Notes under the pieces: model-generated
Database searches by the model: none
Told to the model about the DNA's origin: nothing
The model's input: only the letters and a program-made list of their open reading frames with translations
Part shown: one piece after another, positions 15,984-64,000 of the stretch
Layout: every line of letters begins with the position of its first letter
Numbering within the stretch: position 1 is the first letter of the stretch
Source: Candidatus Acidiferrum sp.
Lineage (GTDB): Bacteria; Verrucomicrobiota; Verrucomicrobiia; Limisphaerales; UBA11358
Direction: 5' to 3'
Length of the DNA stretch: 64,000 bases
Assembly (NCBI GenBank): GCA_035506715.1
Contig: DATJOW010000144.1
Coordinates: 4,560-68,559, forward strand
Position numbers and translations under genes: made by a program

Positions 15984-15999
15984 ACTGAACCCCCGAACC

Positions 16000-17279: not shown

Positions 17280-17307
17280 GGAGCTACTCACACCGCCAGG
17301 TTCGGCG

Positions 17308-28427: not shown

Positions 28428-28737
28428 GATACGACGTTCGTTCCGCGGTTCGGCGGAATCGGGGAACGCAAGTGATGGTAGTGTGCTGTAGCCGACACTT
28501 CTTTGCAATGCCGGTTGCCGGATGAAGACCTTGAACTGCCCTCGCCCCGGCCCTCTCCCATCGAATGGGCAAGGGTGGCCGCAGGCCGGGTGAGGGTCTA
28601 TGTCAGCCATCCGCTCGATAAACCTCTCGCTGTTATATCACACTACCGGTTGCGACGCGTTCAGAAGATCATAAAACACCGGGCTGGTGTTTTGCCGGGC
28701 AACCCTGTATCTAAACCCTTGCAATCAATCGCGTCTC

Positions 28738-31044: not shown

Positions 31045-31079
31045 CCGGTTCCCGCCGGTCAAGGCCCGGACGAGGCGAT

Positions 31080-31110
31080 TGGCGATGCGAGGGTCGCCAG
31101 TTTTATTTTC
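31080..31110 (+). terminator. Rho-independent terminator after the GH51 gene
   Basis: TGGCGA-tgcgaggg-TCGCCA is followed directly by GTTTTATTTTC. Confidence 0.55.
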
Positions 31111-31178
31111 AGATTCCGTTCGCCTTCAGGCAGGAGCGGTCTGATAATCTCCAGTGAATAAACTTAAGTTCATTTTCC

Positions 31179-33353: not shown

Positions 33354-33426
33354 GTTGGCGGCGCCACTCCATCCACGGGCGTGCGCTCGGCGTCACCTTT
33401 GACGGTCGCTTCGCGTCTAACCCCCA

Positions 33427-39818: not shown

Positions 39819-40886
39819 TCAGGGACGCGGTCCGCGGAGGGCCGCCAGCCCCTTGACGAGGTCCACCGCCCGCACCAAAACGGGATCGCGCAGCTGCGGC
39901 TTGGGCGGTAGGTCGGCAACTGTGGCAGCCGGACTGACGTCACTGTCGTCGTCGGCGCTCCGGGCCGGGACTTTCACCGGTCTCATCGATGCGGGAAGTC
40001 CGTTCGATTTCGCGTCCTTTTGTTTCTGCCGGACCAAGTCCGCCTCGCTGGTGCGGTCCACGAACGGCAAAAAGCTGTTGGTGACCGCTCTGGCCGCGTC
40101 GCCGGTCGGTTTTTTCGTGACATAAGGATTCCGCCAGAAGGCGCGTTCCTCCTCGGCTGCCACGTTCACGGTAATGTCGGGTTTCAAACTTTCCGTCGGA
40201 TTGATTTTGCCGTCTGGTTTTGCCGGGGTGGTTGCGATCAACAGCCGTTCGCCGTCTTTCAAGACAAACGGCTTGAAAACCAGGGTGCTGCCGGCGGTCG
40301 TGTTGCCAAGGATCAATCCCGTGCCGGCTGAGCGCAGCGCCGCCGCCAGTGTTTCCGCCGCCCCGTGCGTCCCGCCGTTTACCAAAACGACCAGTGGCCC
40401 GCCAATCGGGCGGGAAGCTCTTTGGTCAGACAGAAGTGCGGCGACGGCCTGGGAGGCCCCGTAATCTTCCCCGCCGGCAAAGCGTAAATCCAAAACCGCC
40501 CCGGCGATGGTGTTCGACGCCGTCAAAGTCCGGCCGGTGTCGGCCAACTCGGCTGCCAGGCCGGTGGTGACCCGGTCCACGCGCCAATACACAACGTTGT
40601 TTTCGATGATGGCGGATCGGCTCAAGGCTTTTTCACCGGATCCGGGGGCCGTTCCGGTTGTACCTTCGCTGACGAGTTCGATCTGGCCGGGAAACTGTGC
40701 AATCAGGCCAGCCACGGCGGCGCGGTTCAGGCTGGCATCGGTGGCGCCTGGCAGGTTGGTCAGCAGCAATTCATAGACTTCCTTGAAATCCGGCGCCGGA
40801 TTGGTTGCGTCCGCCCGCAAGATGCCGGGAGCGGCCAGCCAACCGGTCAACGCCAGGATGAAAAGGCACGGAAATTGTCGCGTCAT
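39819..40886 (-). CDS. S41 (C-terminal processing) peptidase-like protein, catalytic residues apparently substituted
   Basis: Signal peptide MTRQFPCLFILALTGWLAAPGILRA. The block PLVVLVNGGTHGAAETLAAALRSAGTGLILGNTTAGST aligns by eye to the S41 motif VVLvn..SASASEi.AgAL......lvG..TfGKG. Confidence 0.55.
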   Translation of the reverse strand: MTRQFPCLFILALTGWLAAPGILRADATNPAPDFKEVYELLLTNLPGATDASLNRAAVAGLIAQFPGQIELVSEGTTGTAPGSGEKALSRSAIIENNVVYWRVDRVTTGLAAELADTGRTLTASNTIAGAVLDLRFAGGEDYGASQAVAALLSDQRASRPIGGPLVVLVNGGTHGAAETLAAALRSAGTGLILGNTTAGSTLVFKPFVLKDGERLLIATTPAKPDGKINPTESLKPDITVNVAAEEERAFWRNPYVTKKPTGDAARAVTNSFLPFVDRTSEADLVRQKQKDAKSNGLPASMRPVKVPARSADDDSDVSPAATVADLPPKPQLRDPVLVRAVDLVKGLAALRGPRP

Positions 40887-41011
40887 GCAACACCAAAATG
40901 CGCGACAGAATCGCGAAAGTAAAGGCGTCAGGCATTGACGCTTTGCGATTTACGAATCCATCCATTCATCCCGGCTGGCGCGTATATAGTATATGGTCAA
41001 TCGTAAATTTC

Positions 41012-41044
41012 TTGTCGGATTCCAAGCCTCGGCGGCGATATACT
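41012..41044 (+). promoter_or_regulatory. Candidate promoter of the fused ECF sigma gene 1 (shared TTGTCGGATT box plus TATACT)
   Basis: TTGTCGGATT (41012-41021) also occurs at 44410-44419 upstream of the paralog. In both cases an A/T-rich -10-like hexamer (TATACT here) starts 17-18 nt after the box. Confidence 0.35.
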
Positions 41045-41053
41045 GGCAAAAGC

Positions 41054-42679
41054 ATGACAAGCGATTTGGATTTGCTGGGGCAATTCAGCCGTGACCATTC
41101 GCAGGACGCCTTCACCGCGCTGGTGAATCGTCACTTGAACTTGGTCTATTCGGCGGCGCTGCGCCAGGTCCGTTCATCGCAACTGGCCGAGGAAATCGCC
41201 CAATCCGTCTTCGTCGACCTAGCGCGCCAAGCCGGCAAATTGGACAAGGCCACCGGCGGCTCGCCGGTTTTGACCGCCTGGCTTTACACGGTCACCCGCC
41301 GAACGGCGATTGACGTGGTGCGGCGCGAGTCCCGCCGACGGCTGCGCGAACAAATCGCCGTGGAGACGACGAATATGAATGCAACCTCCTCTGACTGGCA
41401 GCAAATAGAGCCACTGCTGGACGATGCGATGGCGGCGCTCGACGACACCGACCGCAGCGCCGTCCTGCTCCGCTATTTTGAAAACAAATCCCTCCGCGAA
41501 GTTGGCGAAGCGTTGGGAACTTCGGATGACGCCGCACAAAAACGGGTCAGCCGCGCCGTGGAGCGCCTGCGCGAATTCTTCACCAAACGCGGCGTCGCTG
41601 TCGCCGCCAGCGGCCTCGCCGTTTTGGTTGCTGCCAACGCCGTCCAAGCCGCGCCGGCTGGACTCGCTGCCACAATTTCGGCCGCCGCCGTTCTGGCCGG
41701 AACTGCTGTTTCCACTTCAACCGTCATCACTGCCACCAAAGCCATTGCCATGACCACCCTGCAAAAAGCCATGATCACCGCCACCGTCGTCATTCTGGCC
41801 GGAGGCGGAATTTACGAAGCTCGCCAAGCCACGCAACTGCGCGAGCGAAATCAGGTCTTCCAGCAAAAGCAAACCTCATTGGCCCAACAACTCGGGCAGT
41901 TACAACAGGAATATGCCGACATGAGCAATCGATTGGTCGCGTTACAGGCAGAAAACGCACAATTGAAATCTGGTCAGAACACGGCTGAACTGCTGAAACT
42001 GCGCGGAGAACTGGCGCGCCGCCAAAACGCGACAAACGATCCGGCTGATGGCGCCGCCAAATCGTGGTTGACCCGCGTGAATCAACTCAAGCAATACCTT
42101 GATCAGAACCCGCAGGCAAAGATTCCGGAACTGCAATTTGTGACCGAAGATGACTGGCTGAATGCCGCCCGCGGGAGTTTGAACGGCGATGCGGATTATC
42201 GCCGCGCCATGAGCACACTGCGAAGCGCCGGTGAACACAAAGTCGGGAACATGCTGCAAAAAGCGCTGAAAGCGTATATGCAGGCCAACCACGACCAGAT
42301 GCCGACTGACTTGGCGCAATTGCAGCCCTATTTCGACTCGCCCTTGGACGATGCCATTCTGCAACGGTGGGAGATTGCGCCAGCGGAAACCGTCCAGAGC
42401 CTGAGACTCGGCGGAGATGTGATCATCACACAACGAGCGCCAGTGGATGAAGTGTTCGATATTCGCTGGGGCATCGGCCCCAATGGCTTCGGCAGCACGG
42501 ATTTTTTATCAACGTCAACCGATACGTACAAAACGATGCAACCAGTGTTCGACGCCTACCGCGCAGCCCACAACGGACAATGGCAGGATAATCTCTCAGA
42601 ACTCCAGCTTTACGCCACCACGCCGGAACAACAGGCGGCGTTACAGAAATTGATTCTGAAAAAAGCCGCTGGGAATTAG
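41054..42679 (+). CDS. ECF-type sigma-70 factor with a long membrane-spanning/coiled-coil C-terminal extension
   Basis: ATG 41054. The sigma region-2-like segment is FTALVNRHLNLVYSAALRQV...IAQSVFVDLAR. The region-4 HTH is AVLLRYFENKSLREVGEALGTSDDAAQKRVSRAVERLREFF. An Ala/Thr-rich hydrophobic block, a Q/L-rich heptad region and a ~200-aa tail follow. Confidence 0.8.
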   Translation: MTSDLDLLGQFSRDHSQDAFTALVNRHLNLVYSAALRQVRSSQLAEEIAQSVFVDLARQAGKLDKATGGSPVLTAWLYTVTRRTAIDVVRRESRRRLREQIAVETTNMNATSSDWQQIEPLLDDAMAALDDTDRSAVLLRYFENKSLREVGEALGTSDDAAQKRVSRAVERLREFFTKRGVAVAASGLAVLVAANAVQAAPAGLAATISAAAVLAGTAVSTSTVITATKAIAMTTLQKAMITATVVILAGGGIYEARQATQLRERNQVFQQKQTSLAQQLGQLQQEYADMSNRLVALQAENAQLKSGQNTAELLKLRGELARRQNATNDPADGAAKSWLTRVNQLKQYLDQNPQAKIPELQFVTEDDWLNAARGSLNGDADYRRAMSTLRSAGEHKVGNMLQKALKAYMQANHDQMPTDLAQLQPYFDSPLDDAILQRWEIAPAETVQSLRLGGDVIITQRAPVDEVFDIRWGIGPNGFGSTDFLSTSTDTYKTMQPVFDAYRAAHNGQWQDNLSELQLYATTPEQQAALQKLILKKAAGN

Positions 42680-44409: not shown

Positions 44410-44443
44410 TTGTCGGATTTTCGCCCGGGCGGTTGTTTAATAG
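44410..44443 (+). promoter_or_regulatory. Candidate promoter of the fused ECF sigma gene 2 (TTGTCGGATT box plus TAATAG)
   Basis: It has the same 10-mer as 41012-41021. TAATAG (44438-44443) ends 5 nt before ATG 44449. Confidence 0.35.
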
Positions 44444-44448
44444 GTGAG

Positions 44449-46008
44449 ATGCAGGAAAAGTCCGACCTCCAACTGCTCCGTGACTACACCGAATGTGGTC
44501 AGGAAGCCGCCTTCCATGAGATCGTTCTGCGTTATACGGATTTCGTGTATGCCGCCGCGTTGCGGCAGGCGGAATCCGCCGATCGGGCGGCAGACATTGC
44601 CCAAAACGTTTTCGTGGACCTGGCGCGCAAAGCCCGATCAGTTGCAGAACGATCGGGGGCAGAAGCTTCACTGGCCGGCTGGCTGCATCGAGCCACGCGC
44701 TACGCAGCACTGAATCATCTGCGCGACAACCGCCGCCGCGTCAACAACGAAAGGCAGGCCATGGAACAACTCCTCACCGATTCCGAACCCGCTGCGGATT
44801 GGGTGCAAATCCGCCCCGTGCTCGACGAAGCCCTCGACAGCCTGGGCGATGACGACCGCGAGGCTGTGTTGCTCCGCTATTTCCAGAACCAGGATTTCCG
44901 CGCTGTCGGGATCGCGCTCGGTATCAGCGACGATGCCGCACAAAAGCGAGTCAGCCGGGCTGTGGAACGGCTGCGTGAATTTTTCTTAAAACGCAAAATC
45001 GCCATTGGCGCCGGCGGGCTCGTTGCCTTGATTTCCGCCAATGTGGGGCAAGCCGCTCCGGCTGGATTGGCAGCCGCCATTTCCACCGCCGCGCTCGCCG
45101 GAACCGCCGTTTCAACCTCAACTGCAATCGCCGCCACCAAAATTATCGCCATGACCACTCTCCAGAAAGCCGTTGTCACCGCCACCGTCGCTGTTTTGGC
45201 CGCCGCCGGCATTTACGAAGCTCGTCAAGCCGCGCAATTGGGCGAAGAAAACCAAGCGCTCCGGCAACAGCAAGCGCCGCTGGCCGAACAGGTCCGGCAT
45301 CTGCAAAATAATCTGGCGGACGCGACCAACCGGTTGGCGGACATGTTGGCGGAAAATTCGCGGTTAAAATCGAATCCAAATCAGACCGAGCTGTTGAAAT
45401 TGCGTGGAGAAGTGACGCAATTGAAAACAGCCGCAATGCAAAAGAAAAGTGACCCCATTGAAGCTGTGGCAACCGCGCGGGCTGCAAAAGTGAATCAACT
45501 CAAGCAACGGCTGGAGCAAATGCCCAACGAAAGAATTCCCGAGCTTCAATATTTAACCGCTCAAGATTGGCTGCGAGGTGCGACTTATAGCGGTGATTTG
45601 AATACAGACGATGATTTGGACCGGGCTTTGAGCCAATTGCGACGCGATGCCAAACGAACGTTTGCTTATTCGATAGGGGAGGCTTTGGCTAATTATATTG
45701 CAGGCCATCGCGGACAATTGCCCGGCGACATCTCACAGCTGGAATCTTACTTCAATCCGCCGATTGACGGGACAATTCTTCAGCGCTACCAACTTTTGCG
45801 GGCGGGAAATTTAAGCGACATTCCGAACAATGAGCCATTGATCGCAGAAAAAGCGCCGGTCGACGATCAATACGACACGCTCTTCAACATCAGCGCCACC
45901 AGCTTTTCTTATCAAGGCACAGGAACCTCATGGGTGAACGGAAGCGGCAAAGGTGATTTTGGAACAAATATAACCGCGAAAATAAAGCCGTTTGAAAGAG
46001 AGAATTAA
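44449..46008 (+). CDS. ECF-type sigma-70 factor with a long membrane-spanning/coiled-coil C-terminal extension (paralog of 41054..42679)
   Basis: ATG 44449. Motifs: FHEIVLRYTDFVYAAALRQA, IAQNVFVDLAR, AVLLRYFQNQDFRAVGIALGISDDAAQKRVSRAVERLREFF. It has the same Ala/Thr-rich block (QAAPAGLAAAISTAALAGTAVSTSTAIAATKIIAMTTLQKAVVTATVAVLAAAGIYEARQAAQL). Confidence 0.8.
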   Translation: MQEKSDLQLLRDYTECGQEAAFHEIVLRYTDFVYAAALRQAESADRAADIAQNVFVDLARKARSVAERSGAEASLAGWLHRATRYAALNHLRDNRRRVNNERQAMEQLLTDSEPAADWVQIRPVLDEALDSLGDDDREAVLLRYFQNQDFRAVGIALGISDDAAQKRVSRAVERLREFFLKRKIAIGAGGLVALISANVGQAAPAGLAAAISTAALAGTAVSTSTAIAATKIIAMTTLQKAVVTATVAVLAAAGIYEARQAAQLGEENQALRQQQAPLAEQVRHLQNNLADATNRLADMLAENSRLKSNPNQTELLKLRGEVTQLKTAAMQKKSDPIEAVATARAAKVNQLKQRLEQMPNERIPELQYLTAQDWLRGATYSGDLNTDDDLDRALSQLRRDAKRTFAYSIGEALANYIAGHRGQLPGDISQLESYFNPPIDGTILQRYQLLRAGNLSDIPNNEPLIAEKAPVDDQYDTLFNISATSFSYQGTGTSWVNGSGKGDFGTNITAKIKPFEREN

Positions 46009-47426: not shown

Positions 47427-50400
47427 TTACGGCGTCTGCAGCCGGTAGAACTGGGTGGGTGCGTTGGTGTAAACCAGGTTGGTCACGATGAACCCGCCGT
47501 TGGTGTCGAACTGGTTGGTGACGAGGTACTGCCACTGCGCCAGCGGTGTGGCGAGGTTGGTCGCGCTTAGAATGTAATAAAGTCCGCTGGCCGTCCCGCC
47601 CGAGCCCGTCAAAATCAGGTTGCCGTTGGACGGAATGACGGTGTCGAAGCGGGGCGGGGTGGTCGATGATGCCCGAACCACCAGTTTGAGCTGGCCGATG
47701 GTGTTGGTGTTGAGGGTGCCGGTGTAACCCGACGGCATACTGCCCATGGCTGGCAAAATTCCGCTCAGCGCCCCGCCGCAGGTGATCAGCGTGTACGTGT
47801 TGGTGCCAAACCCGGCCAGGGCGGCCACATTCAAGGTGCCGCCCAGCGCCAGCGCGCCGGACACGGCGACCTGGTCGCTGGCATTGGTGGCGCCCAGCTC
47901 GAAGTTCAGCAGCGCGCCCGCATTCAGTGTCAGGTTGTTGTTGATGGTCAACACTCCGACCCCGGAGCCCGGCTCCAGGGTGCCGCCGTTGTTCACGGTG
48001 ACCGCGCCGCCGACGCCGCCGGCGCCGCCCAGGGCTCCGTTGTTATTGACGGTCAAGGCGCCGGTGGCTCCAGCCTGGTTCCCGTTCACAATCAAAGCGC
48101 CGCCGTTGATCGTGGTGGTGCCGGAGTAAGTGTTGGCGCCGGTTAGCGTCCAATCACCGTAACCTTCCTTGATGAGCGACGTGGTGCCCTGGATGAGCGC
48201 GGTGTTGGTGGCATCGGTTCCCAATCCGCCGACGCGCCAGGTCACGGCAGATTGTGTCCCGGCGCTGGAGCCGCCGCCGGCGCTGATGGTGATGCCGTTG
48301 CCGGACGCAGCGAATTCACCGATCGGGATGGTGGCGCCGGCCGTCGCCCGCGAATACATCAAAATATTGCTGCCGAGGTATAACTGGGCCTTCGGAAACC
48401 CGAGCGGATTAACCACCCGGAAGTCGTTGGTCACGGTGCCGTTGCTGAGGACATTGATCTTGCCGCTGAAATTGGTCCAGTTGCCGGAGATATCACCACG
48501 GACGTAAGTCACCACCAGATTTAACGTGCCGCTGCCGGAGAGGGTGCCGGCCAACCCGGGAGAGAGAAAGCGCTGCGGGACGCGGATCGTGCCGGTCTGG
48601 TCGGTGGGAACGAGCAGTGCGTTGGTGTTGCCTAAACAATCCGGCGAGCTGCTGCCGGTGAAACCGTTGAATTCCAGGGTGCCGCCGGCAAAGGTGATCG
48701 GTCCGTTGCCGAGCCCGACCAGGTTCACCCCGGCGCTGTTCAGGATGATTGTGCCGTTGCTTAAAATGGTTCCGCCGGTGTACGTGTTGGTCGTCCCGAC
48801 GGTAAGTGAGCCGGCGCCGGATTTGGCAAGCACCAGATTGCCGCCCAGGCCACCCGCACCGGCGAAGGTGTAGTTCCTTGTTCCCGTGACCATGACGGAA
48901 CCGGGCAGCAGGTTGGTGGAGAGATTGATGCTGGGACTGTTCGAGCCGGTGTTGTCAAATGTGACAAAGGCCGTGTCCACGTACAGCGCCGGCGTGGCCC
49001 CGTTCAACCAATTGGTCGAAACACCCACGTCCCAGATATTCAACGAACCGTCGCCGCGCCAGGTCAACGAAGGCGGCGTCGCGTAAGTCGTGGCATCGGC
49101 GGGGTTGGAGTAGCCGGAGGCGCCGGCCAGGTTGGTGCCCCGCACCCGGTAATAGTAGGTGGTTGCCGGCAGGAGGCCGATGTCGGCATAGTTGGTGACG
49201 CCGGCAGCCAACGACGCGATCTGCACAAAGGTCACGGCGTTGATGGAGCGCTCGACGAGAAACCGGTTCTCGTCGGTCGAATTATCCCGCCACGCGAGAT
49301 TGATCTGGGCCGCGCTGACGGCGTTGGCCGTCAGATTACCCGGCGCCGCCGGTGGTGCAGCCGGCACCACCGCAAGCAGGGCAATCATGCCCGGTGGGTT
49401 GGTGAGGGTGACGAACTGGAGAAAACTGCCGCTTAAGGTCAGGTTGCTCAGCCCTCCTGCAAGCGTGCCAGTGTATTGGAACAACGGGTAAAGGCCGGTG
49501 CCCAACGAGCCGTCGGGTTGGTTGATCGCGATGATATTTGTCCCTGACAGGCTCAAGTTCCCCACGATCGTGACGCAATCATTGGATTTGGTGGTGCCGG
49601 CCGGGTCGCTGGAAAGATCGAATTGATTCACGACGGCATCCAGTTCAGTCAGGGTGTTCGTCACAATCAACGTGCCGATGGCATTGGTGCCCGGACCCAC
49701 GACCAGGCCGGTGCCGCGCTGCAGCGTCAGGCCCTGTCCCAGCCGTCCCGTGCCGCCGATTTGGGCCGGACCTTCGACCGCTTCCCGGTTCTCGACGGTG
49801 ACCGGGCTGCCGGCCAGGATGCCATTGACGGTCAGCGTGCCGCCGCTGACGAACGTGCCTCCGGAATAGCTGTTGGTGTTGTTGAGGATCAACCGGCCCG
49901 GGCCAATCTTGGAGAGCGTCATGGCGCCGGTCAGCGATCCGCTGCCGGAGAAGGTGTAGTTGGCGGGCGAAAAAACGGTGACCTTGGCCGGAGCCAGCGC
50001 GGCGGCGAGGTTCACCGTGGGATTGTTCGATCCGCGCAAGTCAAACAGCACCGAGTTGCCTTGGGCAAAGGTGGTCGGGGTGTTGTTGGTCCAGATCCCG
50101 TTCACGAACCAGTTGCTGGTGCTGATGTCCCAGGTGTTCCCGTTGCTGCCCCCGCGCCAGGCGAGGTTCGCGTCGGAGACGGGCGGGCGTGGCGGCGGCG
50201 CCATGCCTGGACCGAGGTAAAACCCGGGGTGCGGCGGCTGGTTGTACGCCACGTTCTGCCAGGCGATGGCCAGGCGGTATTGCGGGTCGTGCATGAGGGT
50301 GTAGAACCGGTTGGTCGCCATGACCGTCGAAACGTAAATGCGCAAGGCACTGCTGTCGGCTGTCCGCCAGATGGCTTCTTCGCGCCAGTCGCCCAGGATG

Positions 50401-52067
50401 TCCGCCGTCAGACAAGGGGTGGCCTTGGTGGAATTATTCGCATAGCAGCCGGAAGCCGAAAGCAAGGTCGCCGTGCCGCTGCCGGTCCACTTGTCAATGT
50501 GGGGTGCCCCGGTCGAGCCGCCGTCGTTGTTGCTGCCGTCGAGCAGCTCGCGGGCGACGTCGGCGTCCCACCAGATGGCGAAATTGACGGAGCCTTTGCT
50601 GGAGGACACCTTCGCGCCAGTCGTGTCGTAAGTGCCGTCGGTGGCGGAAGACCACAGCCAATAACCGGTGCGCGTCGTGTCAATGGGCGAAGCCAGGCCC
50701 CGGCCGGTGTCACCCGTGCCGGGGTAACCCCATAAGAGTGCGCCGGTGCGGGCGTCGCGGTATTCACCGCCGCCCACGCTGGAGGGGTTTTCATGTACGT
50801 CCCAAACCTCCAGGCCCGGCCGGTTCGGATCCAGGTCGGACAAATGCATGGCATCGCCGTGGCCCCACCCGGTGGTATAAAGTCCCTGGCCGTTGTCATC
50901 AATCGCGCAGGCGCCGTACACGATCTCGTCCTTGCCGTCACCGTCCACATCGCCGACGCTCAGGTTGTGGTTGCCCTGGCCTTCGTAGCCGCTGTAGCCG
51001 TTGGTGGTGTCGAAGACCCAGCGTTGGGTGAGCTGGCCTTGGCGCCAGTCCCAGGCCGCCAGCACCGCCCGGGTGTAATAGCCGCGGCACATCACCAGGC
51101 TGGGGCGCACGCCGTCGAGATACGCCACACAGGCGAGGAAGCGGTCCACGCGATTGCCATAGCTGTCGCCCCAACTGCTGACGTTGCCGCGCGGCGGCCA
51201 GTAGTTGGTGGTGACCAGGGCGGCGCCGGTCTGGCCATTGAAGAGGGTGAGGTATTCCGGCCCGGACAGAATGTAACCGCTGGTGTTCCGGTAATCGGCG
51301 TTGGGGTCGTCGCCGGGCATGATGACGTTATTGCCCTGGCCGTCCACGGTTCCGGGCGCAGTCTTGCAGGCGACCTCGGCCTTGCCGTCGCCGTCGAGGT
51401 CATAAACCATGAACTGGGTGTAATGCGCCCCAGCCCGGATGTTTTTGCCCAGGTCAATCCGCCAGAGCCGGGTGCCGTCCAATTTGTACGCGTCGAGATA
51501 AACATCGCCGGTGTAGCCACTCTGCGAATTATCCTTGGAATTCGAAGGGTCCCATTTCACCACCAACTCGTACTCGCCGTCGTCGTCCAGGTCACCCACG
51601 CTGCAATCGTTGGCCCGGTAGGTGTAATTGACCCCGTCCGGCGTGGTGCCGCCGGCGGGGATTTGGAGCGGAACGGAAAGATACGCCTGCACCGGCGCAT
51701 TGGCCGCCAGGCCGAAGGCGCCGCTGGGCGCCCCTTCGATGCCATTGGTGACCGGCCGGACGTACCAGGCATTCGATTGGGTCAGCGTTGCGCCCGTGTC
51801 CACGTAATTGCAGGAATTGGTCAGGAGTGAACTGTTGACCTTGACGGCCGCACCGCCGTTGGGGACGCGGTAAAGATCGAACCCGAGTTCATCAGGATCG
51901 GAGCCCAGCATCCGCCAGCTCACGTAAACGGAAGAGCTGTTGGTGCGGAGGGCGACGACGCCCCGGCCCAGGGTTTCCATCTGGCGTTGGGCAAAGGCCC
52001 CGCTGCCGGTCAGCAGTAAAGCCAGACCCAGCGACAATCCCTGCCGCAGCGAATGACGTTTGTTCAT
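47427..52067 (-). CDS. Rhamnogalacturonan lyase PL11-like domain fused to PATR repeats, FN3 and a C-terminal ...FYRLQTP domain
   Basis: 1546 aa with a signal peptide. The N-terminal ~600 aa resemble YesW-type PL11: QMETLGRGVVALR, YVSWRMLGSD, DCSVGDLDDDGEYELVVKWDPSNSKDNSQSGYTG, VYDLDGDGKAEVACKTAPGT, GDVDGDGKDEIV. PATR repeats follow (GTLTVNG..., NTYSGTTTINGGALIV) and an FN3 module (LAWRDNSTDE...TTYYYRVRGTN). Confidence 0.8.
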   Translation of the reverse strand: MNKRHSLRQGLSLGLALLLTGSGAFAQRQMETLGRGVVALRTNSSSVYVSWRMLGSDPDELGFDLYRVPNGGAAVKVNSSLLTNSCNYVDTGATLTQSNAWYVRPVTNGIEGAPSGAFGLAANAPVQAYLSVPLQIPAGGTTPDGVNYTYRANDCSVGDLDDDGEYELVVKWDPSNSKDNSQSGYTGDVYLDAYKLDGTRLWRIDLGKNIRAGAHYTQFMVYDLDGDGKAEVACKTAPGTVDGQGNNVIMPGDDPNADYRNTSGYILSGPEYLTLFNGQTGAALVTTNYWPPRGNVSSWGDSYGNRVDRFLACVAYLDGVRPSLVMCRGYYTRAVLAAWDWRQGQLTQRWVFDTTNGYSGYEGQGNHNLSVGDVDGDGKDEIVYGACAIDDNGQGLYTTGWGHGDAMHLSDLDPNRPGLEVWDVHENPSSVGGGEYRDARTGALLWGYPGTGDTGRGLASPIDTTRTGYWLWSSATDGTYDTTGAKVSSSKGSVNFAIWWDADVARELLDGSNNDGGSTGAPHIDKWTGSGTATLLSASGCYANNSTKATPCLTADILGDWREEAIWRTADSSALRIYVSTVMATNRFYTLMHDPQYRLAIAWQNVAYNQPPHPGFYLGPGMAPPPRPPVSDANLAWRGGSNGNTWDISTSNWFVNGIWTNNTPTTFAQGNSVLFDLRGSNNPTVNLAAALAPAKVTVFSPANYTFSGSGSLTGAMTLSKIGPGRLILNNTNSYSGGTFVSGGTLTVNGILAGSPVTVENREAVEGPAQIGGTGRLGQGLTLQRGTGLVVGPGTNAIGTLIVTNTLTELDAVVNQFDLSSDPAGTTKSNDCVTIVGNLSLSGTNIIAINQPDGSLGTGLYPLFQYTGTLAGGLSNLTLSGSFLQFVTLTNPPGMIALLAVVPAAPPAAPGNLTANAVSAAQINLAWRDNSTDENRFLVERSINAVTFVQIASLAAGVTNYADIGLLPATTYYYRVRGTNLAGASGYSNPADATTYATPPSLTWRGDGSLNIWDVGVSTNWLNGATPALYVDTAFVTFDNTGSNSPSINLSTNLLPGSVMVTGTRNYTFAGAGGLGGNLVLAKSGAGSLTVGTTNTYTGGTILSNGTIILNSAGVNLVGLGNGPITFAGGTLEFNGFTGSSSPDCLGNTNALLVPTDQTGTIRVPQRFLSPGLAGTLSGSGTLNLVVTYVRGDISGNWTNFSGKINVLSNGTVTNDFRVVNPLGFPKAQLYLGSNILMYSRATAGATIPIGEFAASGNGITISAGGGSSAGTQSAVTWRVGGLGTDATNTALIQGTTSLIKEGYGDWTLTGANTYSGTTTINGGALIVNGNQAGATGALTVNNNGALGGAGGVGGAVTVNNGGTLEPGSGVGVLTINNNLTLNAGALLNFELGATNASDQVAVSGALALGGTLNVAALAGFGTNTYTLITCGGALSGILPAMGSMPSGYTGTLNTNTIGQLKLVVRASSTTPPRFDTVIPSNGNLILTGSGGTASGLYYILSATNLATPLAQWQYLVTNQFDTNGGFIVTNLVYTNAPTQFYRLQTP

Positions 52068-55026: not shown

Positions 55027-56094
55027 TCACTCCACCCGCGCCTTGCCCCTGCCTTTGACCACTTCCCCAATCAGCCAAGCCTTGTGCTTTTGAGCGCGGA
55101 TGAATTTCAGGATGGCATCCGCCTGACTCGCCGACACGATGGCGACCATGCCGATGCCCATGTTGAATACCTGGTAAAGCTCGGCGTCCGGCACGCGGCC
55201 TTTGGCCTCAATCAATTTGAAAATCGGCAGCATGTCCCATGAACCTTTCCGGATTACCACGTCGCAATTCTTTGGCAGCACGCGCGGAATGTTGTCCACG
55301 AACCCGCCTCCCGTAATGTGGGCGAAGGCTTTGATTGGATGTTGGGCGTTGAACGTTGAATGTTGAATGTTGAACTTTTTCAACAAGGCCTGCACGAGCG
55401 GGCCGTAGCTGACGTGGACTTTCAACAACTCTTTGCCAATTGTGCCTTTCAATCCCGGCACGCGGCTGGCCGGCTTCAACCGCATCTGCTCGAAGAAAAT
55501 TTTCCGCGCCAGCGAATAGCCGTTCGTGTGGAGGCCGCTTGACGCGATGCCGAGTACGGCGTCTCCTGCCCTCACGGTTTTCTGGCCGTTGAGCATCGTT
55601 GATTTTTCGACGATGCCGACAATCGTGCCGCTGACGTCGTATTCGCCTTTCTGGTAAAAGCCGGGCATCTGGGCGGTCTCGCCGCCGATGAGCGCGCAAC
55701 GATTCTCCGCGCAGGCGCGGGCGAAGCCGCGAATGATTTCGGTGAAGACGTGCGGCTCAAGCTTGCCGGCCCCGAGGTAATCCAGGAAAAACAGCGGCTC
55801 GGCACCCAGCACGGCAATGTCGTTGACGCAATGGTTCACGAGGTCGGCGCCGATGGTGTCGTGCCGGCCCATGGCAAAGGCGATTTTGAGCTTGGTGCCG
55901 ACGCCGTCCACAGACGACACGAGCACCGGCTCGCGGTATTTCTTGAGGTCGAGCGCGAACAGGCCGCCGAAGCCGCCGACCTTGCCGAGCACCTCGCGGC
56001 GGTGCGTGGAGGCGAGCAATTGCGGCAGGGTGGCTTTGACTTGGTTGCCCAGAGCAATGTCCACGCCGGCGGCGGCGTAAGCCTTTGGTTTCAT
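55027..56094 (-). CDS. purM: Phosphoribosylformylglycinamidine cyclo-ligase (AIR synthetase)
   Basis: Motifs: YAAAGVDIALGNQ, GGFGGLF, SVDGVGTKLK, GGETAQMPG, AHITGGGFVDNIPRVLP, FNMGIGMV. Confidence 0.95.
   Translation of the reverse strand: MKPKAYAAAGVDIALGNQVKATLPQLLASTHRREVLGKVGGFGGLFALDLKKYREPVLVSSVDGVGTKLKIAFAMGRHDTIGADLVNHCVNDIAVLGAEPLFFLDYLGAGKLEPHVFTEIIRGFARACAENRCALIGGETAQMPGFYQKGEYDVSGTIVGIVEKSTMLNGQKTVRAGDAVLGIASSGLHTNGYSLARKIFFEQMRLKPASRVPGLKGTIGKELLKVHVSYGPLVQALLKKFNIQHSTFNAQHPIKAFAHITGGGFVDNIPRVLPKNCDVVIRKGSWDMLPIFKLIEAKGRVPDAELYQVFNMGIGMVAIVSASQADAILKFIRAQKHKAWLIGEVVKGRGKARVE
55333..55374. repeat. Six tandem heptamers (TTCAACA-type on the coding strand) lying in frame inside purM
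   Basis: The minus strand reads TTCAACA TTCAACA TTCAACG TTCAACG CCCAACA TCCAATC, which is 42 nt or 14 codons (FNIQHSTFNAQHPI). It shares TTCAACGCCCAACAT with 61804-61818 and CCCAACATCCAA with 54902-54913. Confidence 0.7.
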
Positions 56095-59218: not shown

Positions 59219-59228
59219 TTGAACCTTT
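59219..59228 (+). promoter_or_regulatory. Candidate ECF-type -35 box TTGAACCTTT upstream of the sigma gene at 59258
   Basis: An identical 10-mer lies at 61940-61949 upstream of the second cassette. The boxes are 39 and 37 nt from the respective ATGs, and GAAC is the classical ECF -35 core. Confidence 0.4.
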
Positions 59229-59257
59229 TCTCGCCTCCGGCATTCTTCCGGGTGTAA

Positions 59258-59821
59258 ATGCTGGTGGTGGCTGAACGCGAACATCTGCCCGTGCCACAAG
59301 CCAAAGCCGGGGTACCGGAGGCTTGGGACACCCTCTTCCGCCGCTACCAACTGCCGCTCTACGTTTATGTTTTTGAACTGGTGCATGACGAACAGGCGAG
59401 CCTCGATCTGGTGCAGGAAACGTTTATTGCCGCCGTCCGGCACATCGGCAGTCTGCGCGACGACGCGAAATTCGGGAGCTGGCTCTTCGGCATCGCGCAC
59501 CAGAAATGCATTCAGCGGTGGCGGAAGCAGGACCGCGAAGACATGTTGCGCGCGGAAATATCCGACGAAGCTGTACGATCGGCAGACAGTCCCGACGAAC
59601 TGCTGCTGCGACGGGAACAAGAAGATGAATTCATGCAATCGTTGAACCAGCTATCGCTACCGCAACGCTCGGTGCTGCTGTTGCATTATGTCGAGGAATT
59701 CTCGCTCGAAGACATCGCCGATATCACCGAAACGCCGGTCGGCACGGTCAAGTCCCGGCTGCATTACGCCAAAACAGCGCTTCGGAAGTTGATGGAGGAG
59801 AAATATGAAAACCCCGCGTGA
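59258..59821 (+). CDS. ECF sigma-70 family sigma factor
   Basis: Motifs: WDTLFRRYQLPLYVYVFELV, DLVQETFIAAVRHI, and the region-4 HTH LPQRSVLLLHYVEEFSLEDIADITETPVGTVKSRLHYAKTALRKL. Confidence 0.9.
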   Translation: MLVVAEREHLPVPQAKAGVPEAWDTLFRRYQLPLYVYVFELVHDEQASLDLVQETFIAAVRHIGSLRDDAKFGSWLFGIAHQKCIQRWRKQDREDMLRAEISDEAVRSADSPDELLLRREQEDEFMQSLNQLSLPQRSVLLLHYVEEFSLEDIADITETPVGTVKSRLHYAKTALRKLMEEKYENPA

Positions 59822-60257
59822 AATTTTATTGGATCGGCACCGCGCCGCCGAGCCGAAGCTGGAGGCAATCCGGCGCGAAGTCGTGGCTGCGGAATTCCAT
59901 GGTCCAGGACGGGTTTCGAGCGTGTCCCCATCTGAAAGCCTGAAGACACCAGAGACAGGCAAGATGCCTGTCCTGCTCTTGATCTGGCGCGAAGTGATCT
60001 GGCCGTGCCGCCGGATCTGGACCGGGCTGGCGGCAGTCTGGTTGTTGATCCTGGCCGTGAATCTTTCCATGCGCGATCCGGTGAGCAACATCACGGGAAA
60101 ACCGGTCCGTTCAGGCGCCGTGATGATCAGCTGGCAAACCCAGCAACGCTGGATGAGCGAATTGCTGACGGAGCGTCCAATGCCACCGGAGGCCGACCGC
60201 CCCCGAAACGTTGTCCCCGGCCCGCGCACGGAAAGTTCTGCTCCAACTGCGGTTTGA
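59805..60257 (+). CDS. Putative anti-sigma-like single-pass membrane protein (no zf-HC2 motif)
   Basis: It overlaps the sigma gene by 17 nt. The TM region VIWPCRRIWTGLAAVWLLILAVNLS and the C-terminal PGPRTES are homologous to the zf-HC2 anti-sigma at 62597..63166. Confidence 0.65.
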   Translation: MKTPREILLDRHRAAEPKLEAIRREVVAAEFHGPGRVSSVSPSESLKTPETGKMPVLLLIWREVIWPCRRIWTGLAAVWLLILAVNLSMRDPVSNITGKPVRSGAVMISWQTQQRWMSELLTERPMPPEADRPRNVVPGPRTESSAPTAV

Positions 60258-60259
60258 CT

Positions 60260-61792
60260 ATGAATGATCGACCTGAAAAAAAATGGCGCTGGCGGCTGAT
60301 GCGCTGGGGATTACTCGGGCTGGCTATTCTGGCAACTCTGATTGCCGTTTTGATCACCGAAGAAAACTGGCGCGGCAAGCGCGATTGGGAAGCCTACAAA
60401 CGCGAGGCCGAGGCGCGTGGCGAGCGGTTTGACTGGCTGGCGTTCGCGCCAACCAACATTCCCGAGGACCAGAATTTTGTAAAGGCGCCGGTCTTTTCCA
60501 ATCTCTGGGCCATGGAATGGGACGCGCAAGCGCAGGATTGGAAATCCAATACCTCCAATACAGCGGATCGTCTCAGAATGTTTCCCTATCGCCACGACGG
60601 TGGTTGGCCAACCAATGTTGACGGAGCGTGGGACCGCGGACGTTTGAGCCGACTGGAAGGCTGGCAGGATTATTACCGCAGCGGTGCGACCAACGGCGTC
60701 GGTGAATTTCCGGTTGCGTCGCAGCCGCAGTCTCCCGCCGCGGATGTGTTGCTGGCGCTGAGCAAATTTGCGCCGGCCATCGAGGAGTTGCGCGCCGCGA
60801 GCCAGCGACCCTGTTCCCGATTCGGGGTCTTTTCCGCCGATGACACGCAAGGATTCGGTCTGTTGACGCAATATCTGGTCAGACTGAAAGGCTGTGCCCA
60901 GGTCCTGCAGTTGCGCGCCATCGCCGAGTTGAACGACAACCAGAGCACGCAGGCGCTCGACGATATCCGGCTGCTTCTGCGCCTCGGCGACCTGTTGCGG
61001 CAGGAGCCGTTGCTGATCGAGCATCTCGTTGGCATCGCCATCACGGCCATCACCCTCCAGCCGATTTACGAGGGCCTGGCACAGCATCGCTGGAATGACG
61101 CCCAGCTCGCCGAACTCGAACGGATGCTCGCTGCGGAGGATTTTCTGGCCGATTGCCGGCGCGCCTTGGGAGGAGAACGGACGTTCGCGATTGATTTCTT
61201 CGAAAATGAAAGAATCAGCGGCGAATACAAAACGGTGGAGGTCATCAATGGCAAACCAAAAGCCGTCACGATCAGCATGCGCCTGATGCCCAGCGCCTTT
61301 TTTTATCAAAACGAACTCGCGTGTGCGCGGGGGATCGACCAATCCCTTTTGCCGCTGGTTGACTTGACCAATCGGATGGTTTCCCCGACCGCGGTTCGCC
61401 GGACCGAAGCCGAGTTGAAACGCGAGGCGCAGCATTTTTCGCCCTACAAAATTCAAACCTTCTTAACCCTGCCGGCCGTAATCCAGAGCATAATGAAATT
61501 CGCCTACATCCAGTCCGGTGTGGATCTGGCCCGGGTGGGCTGCGCGCTGGAACGCTATCATCTCGCGCACGGTGAATATCCCGAGACGCTTGATGCGCTG
61601 GCGCCGCAGTTCATCGAGAAACTGCCGCATGACCTTATCAACGGCCAGCCGTTGCACTATTGGCGCACCGAAGATGGCAAATTCGTGCTGTACTCCGTTG
61701 GCTGGAACGAGACCGACGACGGCGGCACCGTCGTTCTGACCAAGTCGGGGATAGTGGGTCGTGAAAACGGCGATTGGGTTTGGAAGTATTAA
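60260..61792 (+). CDS. Membrane-anchored protein of unknown function with an N-terminal TEENWRG module and a GspG-like C-terminal motif
   Basis: ATG 60260 lies 2 nt after the upstream stop. It has the TM helix LLGLAILATLIAVLI, then TEENWRGKRDWEAYKREAEARGERFDWLAFAPTNIPEDQNF. The C-terminus LERYHLAHGEYPETLDALAPQFIEKLPHDLINGQPLHY...FVLYSVGWNETDDGG resembles the pseudopilin G fold pattern. Confidence 0.7.
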   Translation: MNDRPEKKWRWRLMRWGLLGLAILATLIAVLITEENWRGKRDWEAYKREAEARGERFDWLAFAPTNIPEDQNFVKAPVFSNLWAMEWDAQAQDWKSNTSNTADRLRMFPYRHDGGWPTNVDGAWDRGRLSRLEGWQDYYRSGATNGVGEFPVASQPQSPAADVLLALSKFAPAIEELRAASQRPCSRFGVFSADDTQGFGLLTQYLVRLKGCAQVLQLRAIAELNDNQSTQALDDIRLLLRLGDLLRQEPLLIEHLVGIAITAITLQPIYEGLAQHRWNDAQLAELERMLAAEDFLADCRRALGGERTFAIDFFENERISGEYKTVEVINGKPKAVTISMRLMPSAFFYQNELACARGIDQSLLPLVDLTNRMVSPTAVRRTEAELKREAQHFSPYKIQTFLTLPAVIQSIMKFAYIQSGVDLARVGCALERYHLAHGEYPETLDALAPQFIEKLPHDLINGQPLHYWRTEDGKFVLYSVGWNETDDGGTVVLTKSGIVGRENGDWVWKY

Positions 61793-61797
61793 TTGGA

Positions 61798-61898
61798 GAA
61801 CATTCAACGCCCAACATTCAACGTCGAATATTCAATGTGCGATTCAGGGCGGCGATACTTGGGTGTTGGAAGTTGAATGTTGAGCGGTGAGTGTTTTT
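61798..61898 (+). terminator. Heptamer-period hairpin (TTCAAC-type) followed by a T-run, after the 60260..61792 gene
   Basis: The left arm ACATTCAACGCCCAACATTCAACGTCGAATATTCAA faces the right arm GGTGTTGGAAGTTGAATGTTGAGCGG (CAACATTCAAC pairs with GTTGAATGTTG). GTGTTTTTCC follows. Confidence 0.55.
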
Positions 61899-61939
61899 CC
61901 AACTGCCACGCTGGACAGCCCCAGCTCCACAAAAATTGT

Positions 61940-61972
61940 TTGAACCTTTCCATCGGCAGCGGGGATTAATAG
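61940..61972 (+). promoter_or_regulatory. Candidate promoter of the second-cassette sigma gene (TTGAACCTTT ... TAATAG)
   Basis: It has the same 10-mer as 59219-59228. TAATAG (61967-61972) ends 4 nt before ATG 61977. Confidence 0.4.
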
Positions 61973-61976
61973 GCAG

Positions 61977-62600
61977 ATGGTCATTACGGACGACCACCTT
62001 AAGCTGTCAACCGCACGGGAACTGCTCGCACGCGCACGCGCTAGAGACGCCCGGTCGTTTTGCCTGTTAATTGAACCGCTCCAGGCCCGCCTGCTGCGAC
62101 AGGCCGTCGCCCTGGCAGGCGATTTAAGCGCGGCGGATGACTTGGTTTCCGAAACCCTGGTCGAAGCCTGGAAAAGCCTGCCGCGCTACAACGAGACTTG
62201 CCGGCTGTCCACCTGGCTCTACGCCATCCTGCTGCATCGCCACCGGAAATCCATCCGTTGCGCCCGATCCCGCCCGGTTGCGCTGGCCGGGTTGCCCTTG
62301 CTCGAAGCTCAAGAACTTCACGAGCAACAGGCAAACCTGCCCGCCGCGGAACTCTCGCCGGCGGAAGCCGCGGCGCAATACGAAACGTTCACCCGATTGA
62401 ACCGGTGCGTTAAGCTGCTGCCGGACAAGCATCGCGAGGTCATCCGGCTGCGGTTTTTCGAGGACGCGTCGCTGCCGGATATGGCCGCCGTGCTGGGCTG
62501 TTCAGTGGGAACGGTGAAATCCCGCCTGCATCATGCCCTGGGAAAATTGCGTAAAATGAAAATGAACCTTCCCCCCTTGGCCGGGGATAAACAGATATGA
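61977..62600 (+). CDS. ECF sigma-70 family sigma factor
   Basis: Motifs: DLVSETLVEAWKSL, STWLYAILLHRH, and the region-4 HTH LPDKHREVIRLRFFEDASLPDMAAVLGCSVGTVKSRLHHALGKLRK. Confidence 0.9.
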   Translation: MVITDDHLKLSTARELLARARARDARSFCLLIEPLQARLLRQAVALAGDLSAADDLVSETLVEAWKSLPRYNETCRLSTWLYAILLHRHRKSIRCARSRPVALAGLPLLEAQELHEQQANLPAAELSPAEAAAQYETFTRLNRCVKLLPDKHREVIRLRFFEDASLPDMAAVLGCSVGTVKSRLHHALGKLRKMKMNLPPLAGDKQI

Positions 62601-63166
62601 GGCTTTTGTTGAATTCATGCCGAAGCTATCGCCGGGATATTTGCCTTCTGGCCGGCGGCGCGCTGTCGGAACCGGAGAAGGCCGCAGTCGAAAACCACCT
62701 GGCAACCTGCGTGGATTGCCAGAAGTATGGCGACGCACTAAGGGCCGTGACGGTGCCGCTCAACAACTGGGAAGACAATTTCAGGCACATCCAGCCCGAA
62801 CCCGCTGTTCAGCGGCAGTGGGCCCGGGCGATCCTGGCAGCCGCCCGGCCGGAGCCGGTTCGCCGGCCCGCCGCAACGATGGCCTTCTGCGATTGGTGGC
62901 AGGACGTAATCTGGTCGTCGCGCCGCGTTTGGACGGGTCTGGCAGCAGTCTGGGTGGTCCTGCTCATGGTAAGTCTTTCGGAGCGCGAGCATTCTCCGGC
63001 CATCGCCAAATCCATGCCGTCAACGGCAATCATTGTGGCGTTCAAAGACCAGCAAAAGTTGTTGGCGGAATTACTGGGCGACTACGCCGCGCCGCCAGAC
63101 GTTGACCGGCAAAAGATTTCTTTGCCGAAACCGCGCACCGAAAGTGCAGTCGAATTGAAAGTGTAA
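62597..63166 (+). CDS. Anti-sigma factor, zf-HC2 type, single-pass membrane protein
   Basis: It has an ATGA overlap with the sigma gene. The HLATCVDCQ zinc-finger motif is present, followed by the TM region VIWSSRRVWTGLAAVWVVLLMVSLS. Confidence 0.8.
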   Translation: MRLLLNSCRSYRRDICLLAGGALSEPEKAAVENHLATCVDCQKYGDALRAVTVPLNNWEDNFRHIQPEPAVQRQWARAILAAARPEPVRRPAATMAFCDWWQDVIWSSRRVWTGLAAVWVVLLMVSLSEREHSPAIAKSMPSTAIIVAFKDQQKLLAELLGDYAAPPDVDRQKISLPKPRTESAVELKV

Positions 63167-63223
63167 TGTCGGCATCAGTCCGGCCTGACTGTGGCAAGCC
63201 CAATGCTGGACGGAGAAGTTTTT

Positions 63224-64000
63224 ATGAACGAAACACCAGCTCCTGATAGCGGGCGACCCTCGTTAAGCGGCCGGTTCTTCCGCTGGCTGATCCGCCGGCG
63301 GACGCAGAAGCGCGCCTTGATTGGGCTGGCCATCTTCGCCACGCTGGTGGCGATTTTTTACACCGAGGAAAACTGGCGCGGCCAACACGCGTGGGAACGG
63401 TGCAAAGCGGACCTCGAAGCCAAAGGCGCGGTGCTGGATTGGGATAATTACATCCCGCCGCCGGTGCCGGACGACCAGAATTTTTATACCGCCAGCACGA
63501 ACATCGCGGTGAGATTCGTCAAAGCGCAGACTGAAGCTCAAAACGAAGCGGCTTCACATTTGCAATGGCTTCGGCTTGGATCAATTGACCCAGTCATGAT
63601 TGCCGAGGTGACAGTCGTGTCTTCAAATTCGGACGTGGTTCCCAACGGCGCTGATTTATACCTCCGTTATGATCATTCGGTTGTTACCGTCGCAACATCC
63701 CATAAAGATTTTTCTGAAGAGCCGTCTCCTGTTCTCCCAACCATTGAATTGAAGGATGTTCCTTTAAAAGAGGCACTCGAACAATTGTCGCGACAGGCAA
63801 ACCTGAATTACACCAGTAGTTCCGAAATTCAATGGGTGGATTCAAAAGGTAAGCCCATTTTGGTTACTATCCGGTGGGAAAATGTCTCGGCGCGCGAAGC
63901 TTTGTATGCGCTGTTGGAAAATTATGATCTGGCGCTGGTCGAAGATTCCAAAACAGGCACAGCCCGCATTGTTCCCACGAAAGGCGGAATCTATATGGAA
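63224..64000 (+). CDS. Membrane-anchored protein with an N-terminal TEENWRG module and an STN/secretin-N-like segment; the 3' end lies outside the window (not in the ORF track)
   Basis: In my own translation from ATG 63224 the frame is open to base 64000. The sequence reads MNETPAPDSG...LIGLAIFATLVAIFYTEENWRGQHAWERCKADLEAKGAVLDWDNYIPPPVPDDQNF...IELKDVPLKEALEQLSRQANLNY...ARIV. Confidence 0.7.
   Translation, partial: MNETPAPDSGRPSLSGRFFRWLIRRRTQKRALIGLAIFATLVAIFYTEENWRGQHAWERCKADLEAKGAVLDWDNYIPPPVPDDQNFYTASTNIAVRFVKAQTEAQNEAASHLQWLRLGSIDPVMIAEVTVVSSNSDVVPNGADLYLRYDHSVVTVATSHKDFSEEPSPVLPTIELKDVPLKEALEQLSRQANLNYTSSSEIQWVDSKGKPILVTIRWENVSAREALYALLENYDLALVEDSKTGTARIVPTKGGIYME

Follow-up and report, generated by a model that had tools for sequence, protein, structure and literature searches.

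Extracytoplasmic function (ECF) sigma factors form the third major mode of bacterial signal transduction, and the input is known for few of their groups. In the sigma-E system, the accessory periplasmic protein RseB (MucB) binds the periplasmic part of the anti-sigma factor RseA (MucA) and gates its proteolysis. CnrH/CnrY/CnrX of Cupriavidus metallidurans comprises an ECF sigma factor, a short transmembrane anti-sigma factor and a membrane-anchored periplasmic sensor (PMC6851896). Here, we analysed a 64,000-nucleotide (nt) stretch of Candidatus Acidiferrum sp. (contig DATJOW010000144.1; hereafter the window, always at its full length), which carries two head-to-tail gene cassettes, each encoding in the same order a sigma factor (sigma1, sigma2), a small membrane protein (mid1, mid2) and a large protein with a 'TEENWRG' motif (thr1, thr2). 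We propose, with a probability of roughly 0.55, that each cassette would be an autoregulated three-component ECF unit that works by analogy with CnrH/CnrY/CnrX and uses a new partner family, with thr probably being the sensing partner of the anti-sigma factor. No description of this cassette or protein family was found in literature searches.

The genes of the two cassettes are as follows.

59258..59821, + strand: sigma1, ECF sigma factor 1, 187 residues (Pfam Sigma70_r2, 58.9 bits; Sigma70_r4_2, 53.7 bits)
59805..60257, + strand: mid1, single-pass membrane protein of 150 residues, presumed anti-sigma factor (helix and tail homology to mid2)
60260..61792, + strand: thr1, third protein of 510 residues (AlphaFold2 model, family alignment)
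61977..62600, + strand: sigma2, ECF sigma factor 2, 207 residues (Pfam Sigma70_r2 and Sigma70_r4_2)
62597..63166, + strand: mid2, class I (zf-HC2) anti-sigma factor of 189 residues, whose membrane helix is followed by a periplasmic tail with PRTES at its end (Pfam zf-HC2)
63224..64000, + strand: thr2, first 259 residues, comprising anchor and TEENWRG module followed by an insert with an STN-like stretch; cut at the window end

An earlier note on this DNA, made from the sequence alone, had placed two tandem sigma/anti-sigma/third-gene cassettes at these positions, and all six open reading frames (ORFs) were recovered there on the + strand. The sigma1 and mid1 genes overlapped by 17 nt (59805–59821) and were followed after 2 nt by thr1, while sigma2 and mid2 overlapped by 4 nt (ATGA, 62597–62600) and were followed after 57 nt by thr2. 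Each gene pair was significantly similar between cassettes by BLASTP: sigma1 and sigma2 shared 30% identity (E = 1e-13), mid1 and mid2 45% over 85 residues confined to the membrane helix and the tail (E = 1e-23), and thr1 and thr2 49% over 67 N-terminal residues (E = 5e-19). When all six frames of the window were read, E(E/D)NW(R/K)G was present only twice, in thr1 and thr2. Judged by these similarities the cassettes are clearly paralogous and point to an old duplication. By their domain content (sigma-2 and sigma-4 domains only, ~200 residues), both sigma factors belong to the ECF (group 4) sigma-70 proteins, with NCBIfam TIGR02937 (sigma70-ECF) scores of 94 bits for sigma1 and 83.7 bits for sigma2 relative to a cut-off of 42.9. 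Both of them and mid2 are ordinary members of known families.

Linkage and co-variation in related loci

The third proteins belong to a large family. At least 2,805 homologues of thr1 were found at 90% clustering, all annotated as 'hypothetical' and without Pfam domains, and a profile of the TEENWRG module retrieved 3,090 representatives at 50% clustering, with the module lying within the first ~230 residues in the 150 best-scoring of these. Records of the family were labelled almost entirely as Verrucomicrobiota from soil and freshwater. The module had no Pfam or NCBIfam name, in agreement with the earlier note, which had not recognised it as a named domain. A word-index search with the module also returned apparent 'short stand-alone module proteins', a category that we rejected: the search gave only short fragments, and the two on long contigs were frameshift-split genes. 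In their two loci (L001, 7929–9505; L002, 7878–9705) the thr gene was read as several consecutive ORF fragments, which points to assembly frameshift errors.

We then considered 79 related loci, fetched from the 80 best of 349 found in a genome scan. Approximately 65 were labelled Verrucomicrobiota (Limisphaerales or Pedosphaera), ten carried the names of other taxa and four had no label. The ten other-taxon labels (Bifidobacteriaceae, Sulfopaludibacter, Saccharimonadales, Acidiferrales and Aquilonibacter; L007, L013, L015, L018, L019, L023, L029, L031, L038 and L047) occurred despite clear Verrucomicrobiota synteny and look like mis-binning or mislabelling. Among the 89 family members for which 1.5 kb or more of DNA 5' of the gene could be read, 84 were directly preceded by co-oriented sigma and mid genes, so that the co-occurrence of the module with ECF/anti-sigma pairs, for which the earlier note had called, was strongly positive; since the sample is biased to close relatives of the query, this fraction shows strong conservation within a lineage and not independent recurrences. 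Tandem cassettes were common (up to three per 12 kb), and the same three-gene order was kept in at least three diverged cassette types. In many loci cassette 1 was syntenic with purM, a phosphoglycerate mutase-type gene (pgm), a CDP-alcohol phosphatidyltransferase gene (pgsA) and an HTH_25 gene.

Such synteny with purM, pgm and pgsA, together with the bias of the analysed loci to close relatives, is what would be seen if the two cassettes were a recent local duplication without functional coupling, and if their linkage elsewhere reflected the shared ancestry of a few close relatives. We consider this highly improbable: the cassettes of the window are only 30–49% identical, the three-gene order holds across at least three diverged types and ~3,090 family clusters exist at 50% identity. 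Heads and sensors have, moreover, been re-assorted while the order was kept. In five loci (L007, L024, L036, L039 and L048; cassettes at ~4700–7560) thr1-type proteins stood behind sigma2/zf-HC2 pairs, and in the same loci the sigma1-type pair had another thr subtype and a strongly diverged mid. This amounts to natural re-assortment of heads and sensors.

The middle proteins were built from a shared block and two unrelated heads. The block common to 74 mid1-type and 15 mid2-type sequences from the related loci consisted of a membrane helix (W.ELIWPCRRIW.GLAAVW) and a periplasmic tail (QQ.LL.EL ... P.PR(S/T)E at the C-terminus), and hhalign aligned the two types over this helix and tail only (E = 4e-42). 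The claim that the middle genes share a transmembrane segment and tail was thereby upheld, with the motifs quoted for it present and with the BLASTP value given above. For the tail itself, no named domain was found in Pfam, NCBIfam or PDB. In mid1, a 27-residue N-terminal segment (MKTPREILL.RHQAA.PKLDAIR), kept in 74 orthologues, was followed by a variable linker, the membrane helix and a ~60-residue periplasmic tail ending in PRTES. The head of mid2 was an N-terminal H-x3-C-x2-C zinc finger (HLATCVDC; Pfam zf-HC2, 28.9 bits relative to a cut-off of 22.2), with sub-threshold matches to NCBIfam anti-sigma models. Neither zf-HC2 nor any other Pfam or NCBIfam family was present in mid1 at E ≤ 1, and the earlier note was thus right that this motif occurs in cassette 2 only and that the N-terminus of mid1 is unrelated. 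Pfam and the alignments revealed no sensor domain in the middle proteins, whose periplasmic tail is short.

To measure co-variation, 85 cassettes were cut into five segments (sigma, mid head, mid helix and tail, thr anchor and module, thr C-terminal domain), and Spearman's rho was calculated between pairwise identities, with a partial Mantel statistic to control for sigma. Rho was 0.75 between sigma and mid head, 0.20 between mid head and mid tail, 0.64 between mid tail and thr module, 0.41 between thr module and thr C-terminal domain, and 0.12 between sigma and thr module. With sigma controlled for, the partial Mantel value was 0.63 for tail and module (P = 0.001) and −0.02, not significant, for head and module. 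Within the 68 sigma1-type cassettes alone, tail and module remained the strongest pair (rho 0.68). The thr anchor and module formed the most conserved segment of the system, with a mean identity of 0.59.

The helix and tail of mid thus vary with the anchor and module of thr, and do not follow sigma in the same way. These results support docking of mid and thr through those segments, which is what the earlier note had suggested for the module. The segment correlations and the re-assortment together place the breakpoints within mid and, in thr, downstream of the module rather than at gene borders. This pattern is as expected if mid is an adaptor whose head serves sigma and whose helix and tail serve thr. 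From its gene position and its homology to mid2, mid1 would also act as an anti-sigma factor.

A different explanation of the tail and module behaving as one evolutionary block is that mid and thr form a membrane complex with its own function (for example, envelope or pilus-like assembly), with the sigma factor only driving expression and mid1 not being an anti-sigma factor at all. Although mid1 indeed carries no anti-sigma signature, its homologue mid2 fuses a bona fide zf-HC2 head to the same helix and tail, the N-terminus of mid1 is conserved and its gene overlaps that of the sigma factor, and the sigma factor is always part of the arrangement. We therefore hold this explanation to be improbable.

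Third proteins

The start of thr1 at 60260 (MNDRPEKK...) was preferred over a longer ORF beginning with GTG at 60005, as M1 was nearly invariant in the family alignment. Residues 1–95 of thr1 comprised an N-terminal signal-anchor and the TEENWRG module, residues 96–150 a variable region, residues ~150–395 a helical domain and residues 398–510 a pseudopilin-like domain. In the AlphaFold2 model (predicted local distance difference test, pLDDT, 89.8; predicted template modelling score, pTM, 0.87), one long helix (residues 7–52) is predicted to hold the membrane anchor and to set TEENWRG at the periplasmic face. Beyond this helix, the model contained a small mixed region, the helical domain with a beta-hairpin, and a final long helix with a beta-sheet.

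When the whole thr1 model was compared with PDB using Foldseek, nothing significant was found (best match Get4, E = 0.07, TM ~0.1), and this search likewise gave no structural relative of the helical domain (~150–395). For the last 116 residues modelled alone, the top seven Foldseek matches in PDB were all EpsG, GspG or PulG, with a probability of 1.00, TM of 0.53–0.66 and ~113 of 116 residues aligned. The corresponding sequence echoes were weak: TIGR01710 scored 13 bits on thr1 relative to a cut-off of 88.85, and Pfam T2SSG reached an E-value of only 0.03–0.08 in two relatives. The thr1 translation showed no prepilin leader, prepilin peptidase site, N-methylation motif or hydrophobic N-terminal assembly helix. 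As modelled, the C-terminus of thr1 thus has a pseudopilin fold, but thr1 is not a pseudopilin.

The earlier note had held that the third genes share only an N-terminal module and then diverge. This did not survive comparison with the related loci, where all 95 third proteins with readable C-terminal sequence (three of them ending at a contig end) carried the C-terminal region of thr1 (~150–510). The syntenic orthologues of cassette 2 (L011, L013, L022, L029 and L055) matched thr2 to approximately residue 120 and then rejoined the common C-terminal domain; therefore, thr2 is cut at base 64000, is predicted to run on into this common C-terminal region (~360 residues) and is not a different protein. 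Since the window truncates thr2, its relation to thr1 beyond the module could not be read from the window, and the apparent divergence was an artefact. A search with the 259-residue thr2 fragment returned no close full-length orthologue, the best match being 69% identical over 47% of the query. The insert after the module varied in length among thr proteins (~20, 55–90, 150 and up to 250 residues). Overall, the third proteins are full-length paralogues made of an anchor, a juxtamembrane module, a variable insert, a helical domain of ~250 residues and a pseudopilin-fold domain. In L074 and some database fragments (P0023, P0026), extra N-terminal membrane segments preceded the module.

As to the features proposed earlier for the parts beyond the module, the pseudopilin-like end of thr1 was real at the level of fold, while the STN-like segment of thr2 stayed below threshold and was not seen in homologues. 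STN (PF07660) scored 22.7 bits on thr2 relative to a gathering cut-off of 28.4, with half of the model matched; Pfam gave no STN match in L070, L041, P0267 or other relatives, and a PDB sequence search gave E = 1.6. An STN identity of the insert was thus not supported, as it depended on one sub-threshold Pfam match that neither the relatives nor the PDB search reproduced. In other Pfam searches, thr1 had no match at E ≤ 1, thr2 had none above the gathering cut-off, and eight relatives had no CnrX-type or RseB-type family at E ≤ 0.1.

These properties bear on whether thr could be an output of the system instead of its regulator, that is, an envelope protein that is co-transcribed with the sigma and anti-sigma genes and is raised when the sigma factor is activated in another way. 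The oatA gene in the sigV-rsiV operon of Bacillus is a precedent for such a co-transcribed output protein. An output protein would fit the position of thr at the end of an autoregulated operon, its lack of any recognised sensor domain, its orphan copies without sigma or anti-sigma genes and its pseudopilin-like fold, which suggests a structural or assembly role. However, the co-variation of thr with the helix and tail of the anti-sigma factor, which exceeds that with sigma and that with the thr C-terminal domain, is not what an effector would be expected to show. Moreover, tails as short as those of the anti-sigma factors could not sense by themselves, and the invariant thr residues in the family alignment hold no catalytic motifs. 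We regard an output role as unlikely, although it deserves to be taken seriously.

Transcription signals and neighbouring genes

Four non-coding or intragenic elements accompany the cassettes.

59219..59257, + strand: P1, promoter-like element (TTGAACCTTTTCTCGCCTCCGGCATTCTTCC...) ending at the sigma1 ATG (GAACC spacing, 40-nt conservation)
61793..61902, + strand: 110-nt hairpin of AACATTCAACG repeats followed by a T-run (RNA fold; inverted repeat I1 covers the hairpin)
61939..61976, + strand: P2, promoter-like element (TTTGAACCTTTCCATCGGCAGCGGGGATTAATAGGCAG) ending at the sigma2 ATG (GAACC spacing)
62563..62596, + strand: P2-like element (TGAACCTTCCCCCCTTGGCCGGGGATAAACAGAT) inside the sigma2 3' end, just 5' of the mid2 ATG (15 of 15 sigma2-type cassettes)

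A TTGAACCTTT box occurred at a fixed distance 5' of 84 of 85 sigma genes. GAACC lay exactly 37 nt 5' of the ATG in 69 of 70 sigma1-type genes, including that of the window, with the whole 40-nt stretch conserved, and exactly 35 nt 5' of the ATG in all 15 sigma2-type genes. P1 and P2 had the −35-like box in common and type-specific downstream boxes, GCATTCC for sigma1 and GGGGATTGA for sigma2, the latter of which could in part be a ribosome-binding site. From its spacing and conservation, the TGAACC-type box may be a promoter through which the ECF sigma factor regulates itself; the leader would then be very short, with transcription predicted to start ~5–10 nt 5' of each sigma ATG. The element at 62563–62596 was conserved as DNA even in those of the 15 cassettes where the position of the sigma stop codon shifted, and could be an internal promoter for mid2 and thr2 or a ribosome-binding region. 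Apart from the sigma-upstream and intra-sigma2 sites, TGAACCTT had no consistent further targets in ~0.8 Mb of loci, and a scan for sigma-70 promoters found none.

The hairpin after thr1 had a predicted folding energy of −49.4 kcal/mol (z = −6.2 relative to shuffled sequences) and is likely the terminator of cassette 1. No terminator-like site was present at the internal gene junctions of either cassette. Because of the promoter-like boxes at the 5' ends, the hairpin after thr1 and the terminator-free internal junctions, each cassette looks like its own operon. The AACATTCAACG-type pattern occurred 7 times in the window relative to 1.2 expected, and similar sequences flanked cassettes at other loci; a triple copy at 55347–55371 lay in frame within the purM ORF, where it reads ...FNIQHSTFNAQH... 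This repeat may be a dispersed palindromic element.

Elsewhere in the window, two paralogous ORFs of 593 and 532 residues (40898–42679 and 44410–46008, both + strand) each combined an ECF sigma domain (r2 and r4) with an Ala-rich membrane segment, a stretch resembling a coiled coil and ~250 further residues at the C-terminus. This sigma architecture differs from that of the cassettes in being contained in one protein. The first of the two ORFs was adjoined by a gene for an S41 (C-terminal processing) peptidase (39819–40886, − strand); S41-type proteases could act on anti-sigma tails. The window was rich in genes for the degradation of plant polysaccharides (1210–5361, 11878–19941, 20219–24319, 28687–35646 and 47427–52067), including rhamnogalacturonan lyases PL4 and PL11, GH2, GH5, alpha-galactosidase and arabinofuranosidase, and it also encoded giant PATR-repeat proteins and a Reg_prop/Y_Y_Y hybrid histidine kinase (25197–28610, − strand).

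Proposed mechanism and comparison with known systems

In the three-component mechanism that we favour, the mid head would hold the sigma factor by means of a zinc-finger class I domain in cassette 2 and of the 27-residue unclassified segment in cassette 1, and the mid membrane helix and ~60-residue periplasmic tail would pair with the thr anchor and juxtamembrane TEENWRG module. The periplasmic body of thr (variable insert, helical domain and pseudopilin-fold domain) would perceive an envelope or extracellular cue and switch mid, either by altering its conformation in the manner of CnrX/CnrY or by making the tail accessible to proteases, and the freed sigma factor would transcribe at least its own operon from the TGAACC-type promoter. 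Both the physical binding and the release step of this scheme are inferred.

Several observations weigh against this mechanism. No known ligand-binding domain was found in the third protein, and a profile of mid1 had no match in Pfam or PDB, so that no anti-sigma family was recognised. Five family members were orphans without sigma or anti-sigma genes. To these we add the sampling bias of the 79 loci described above. The sigma–head rho dropped to 0.29 within the 68 sigma1-type cassettes; the value of 0.75 is therefore mostly a two-class effect, and we do not count it as strong evidence. Finally, tail and module are encoded next to each other; linkage therefore contributes to their correlation, and shared recombination tracts could explain part of the co-variation; equally adjacent pairs correlated less (head and tail 0.20–0.29, module and C-terminal domain 0.41–0.42). 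The orphan genes, with no sigma or mid gene upstream, were L027 8437–9897, L046 7592–9070, L048 8439–9869, L074 5662–7659 and L080 5881–7182.

A broader version of the three-component mechanism is offered tentatively, as a possibility. It describes a plug-and-play architecture confined to Verrucomicrobiota in which a conserved transmembrane connector (helix and tail of the anti-sigma factor, plus anchor and module of the TEENWRG protein) would join two units swapped by recombination. One would be a cytoplasmic head, consisting of sigma with a zinc-finger or a novel mini anti-sigma segment, and the other a set of pseudopilin-domain periplasmic sensors whose variable inserts would set specificity. 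Glycans, or the state of a pilin-like envelope proteome, could serve as the cue. A link of the cassettes to glycans is only a guess because cassette 1 sits among housekeeping genes, though the window is rich in pectin-degrading genes.

The family considered here is large, multi-copy and unannotated (~3,000 clusters at 50% identity) and is tied to sigma/anti-sigma pairs, and the data point to a specific candidate contact, between the helix and tail of the anti-sigma factor and the anchor and module of the third protein, in addition to a natural re-assortment of heads and sensors. If the proposal is true, it would add a new family of anti-sigma partners and a new minimal anti-sigma head (a short anti-sigma domain), help to trace the signals to which polysaccharide degraders, abundant yet poorly cultured, respond, and supply orthogonal parts for synthetic sigma circuits.

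Compared to other ECF systems with three components, the cassettes resemble FecI/FecR/FecA and VreA-type signalling in having a sigma factor, an anti-sigma factor and a third protein, which in those systems, and probably in the cassettes, signals to the periplasmic part of the anti-sigma factor; a sub-threshold STN-like stretch was also present in thr2. Unlike in those systems, the middle proteins have no FecR domain and there is no TonB-dependent barrel. An RseB-like gating of anti-sigma proteolysis is one possible way for thr to act. RseB, however, is a soluble protein with a fold like that of lipoprotein carriers, whereas thr is anchored in the membrane and did not match MucB_RseB. At the level of single domains, residues 398–510 of thr1 are, as in GspG, EpsG and PulG, a long helix packed on a small beta-sheet, but here the pilin-like domain is the C-terminal part of a larger protein. 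Like class I (zf-HC2) anti-sigma factors of the RsrA, ChrR and RslA type, mid2 has an H-x3-C-x2-C domain and directly follows its own ECF sigma factor, while mid1 differs from this class in swapping the zinc-finger head for an unrelated 27-residue segment and keeping the helix and tail.

The gene order of the cnr system is cnrY-cnrX-cnrH, unlike the sigma–anti-sigma–sensor order of the cassettes. Also unlike in Cnr, the partner in the cassettes is ~500–700 residues long, has a pseudopilin-fold domain and shows no metal-binding signature, and no sequence relationship of thr or mid to CnrX or CnrY was apparent, as neither protein was connected to such a family by a match in Pfam or PDB. More generally, Pfam, NCBIfam and PDB gave no named relatives for the mid1 head, for the tail common to both middle proteins or for the partner family. 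The likeness to Cnr (PMC6851896) is one of design: three components, a small single-pass anti-sigma factor with a short periplasmic part, and a separate inner-membrane-anchored protein with a mainly helical periplasmic domain, which in Cnr, and probably in the cassettes, is a sensor that acts via the anti-sigma factor; the cnr operon is autoregulated, and those of the cassettes may be so too. Overall, the cassettes belong with the ECF systems that use an accessory protein in the periplasm, as a variant, specific to this lineage, of a familiar form of envelope signalling in bacteria.

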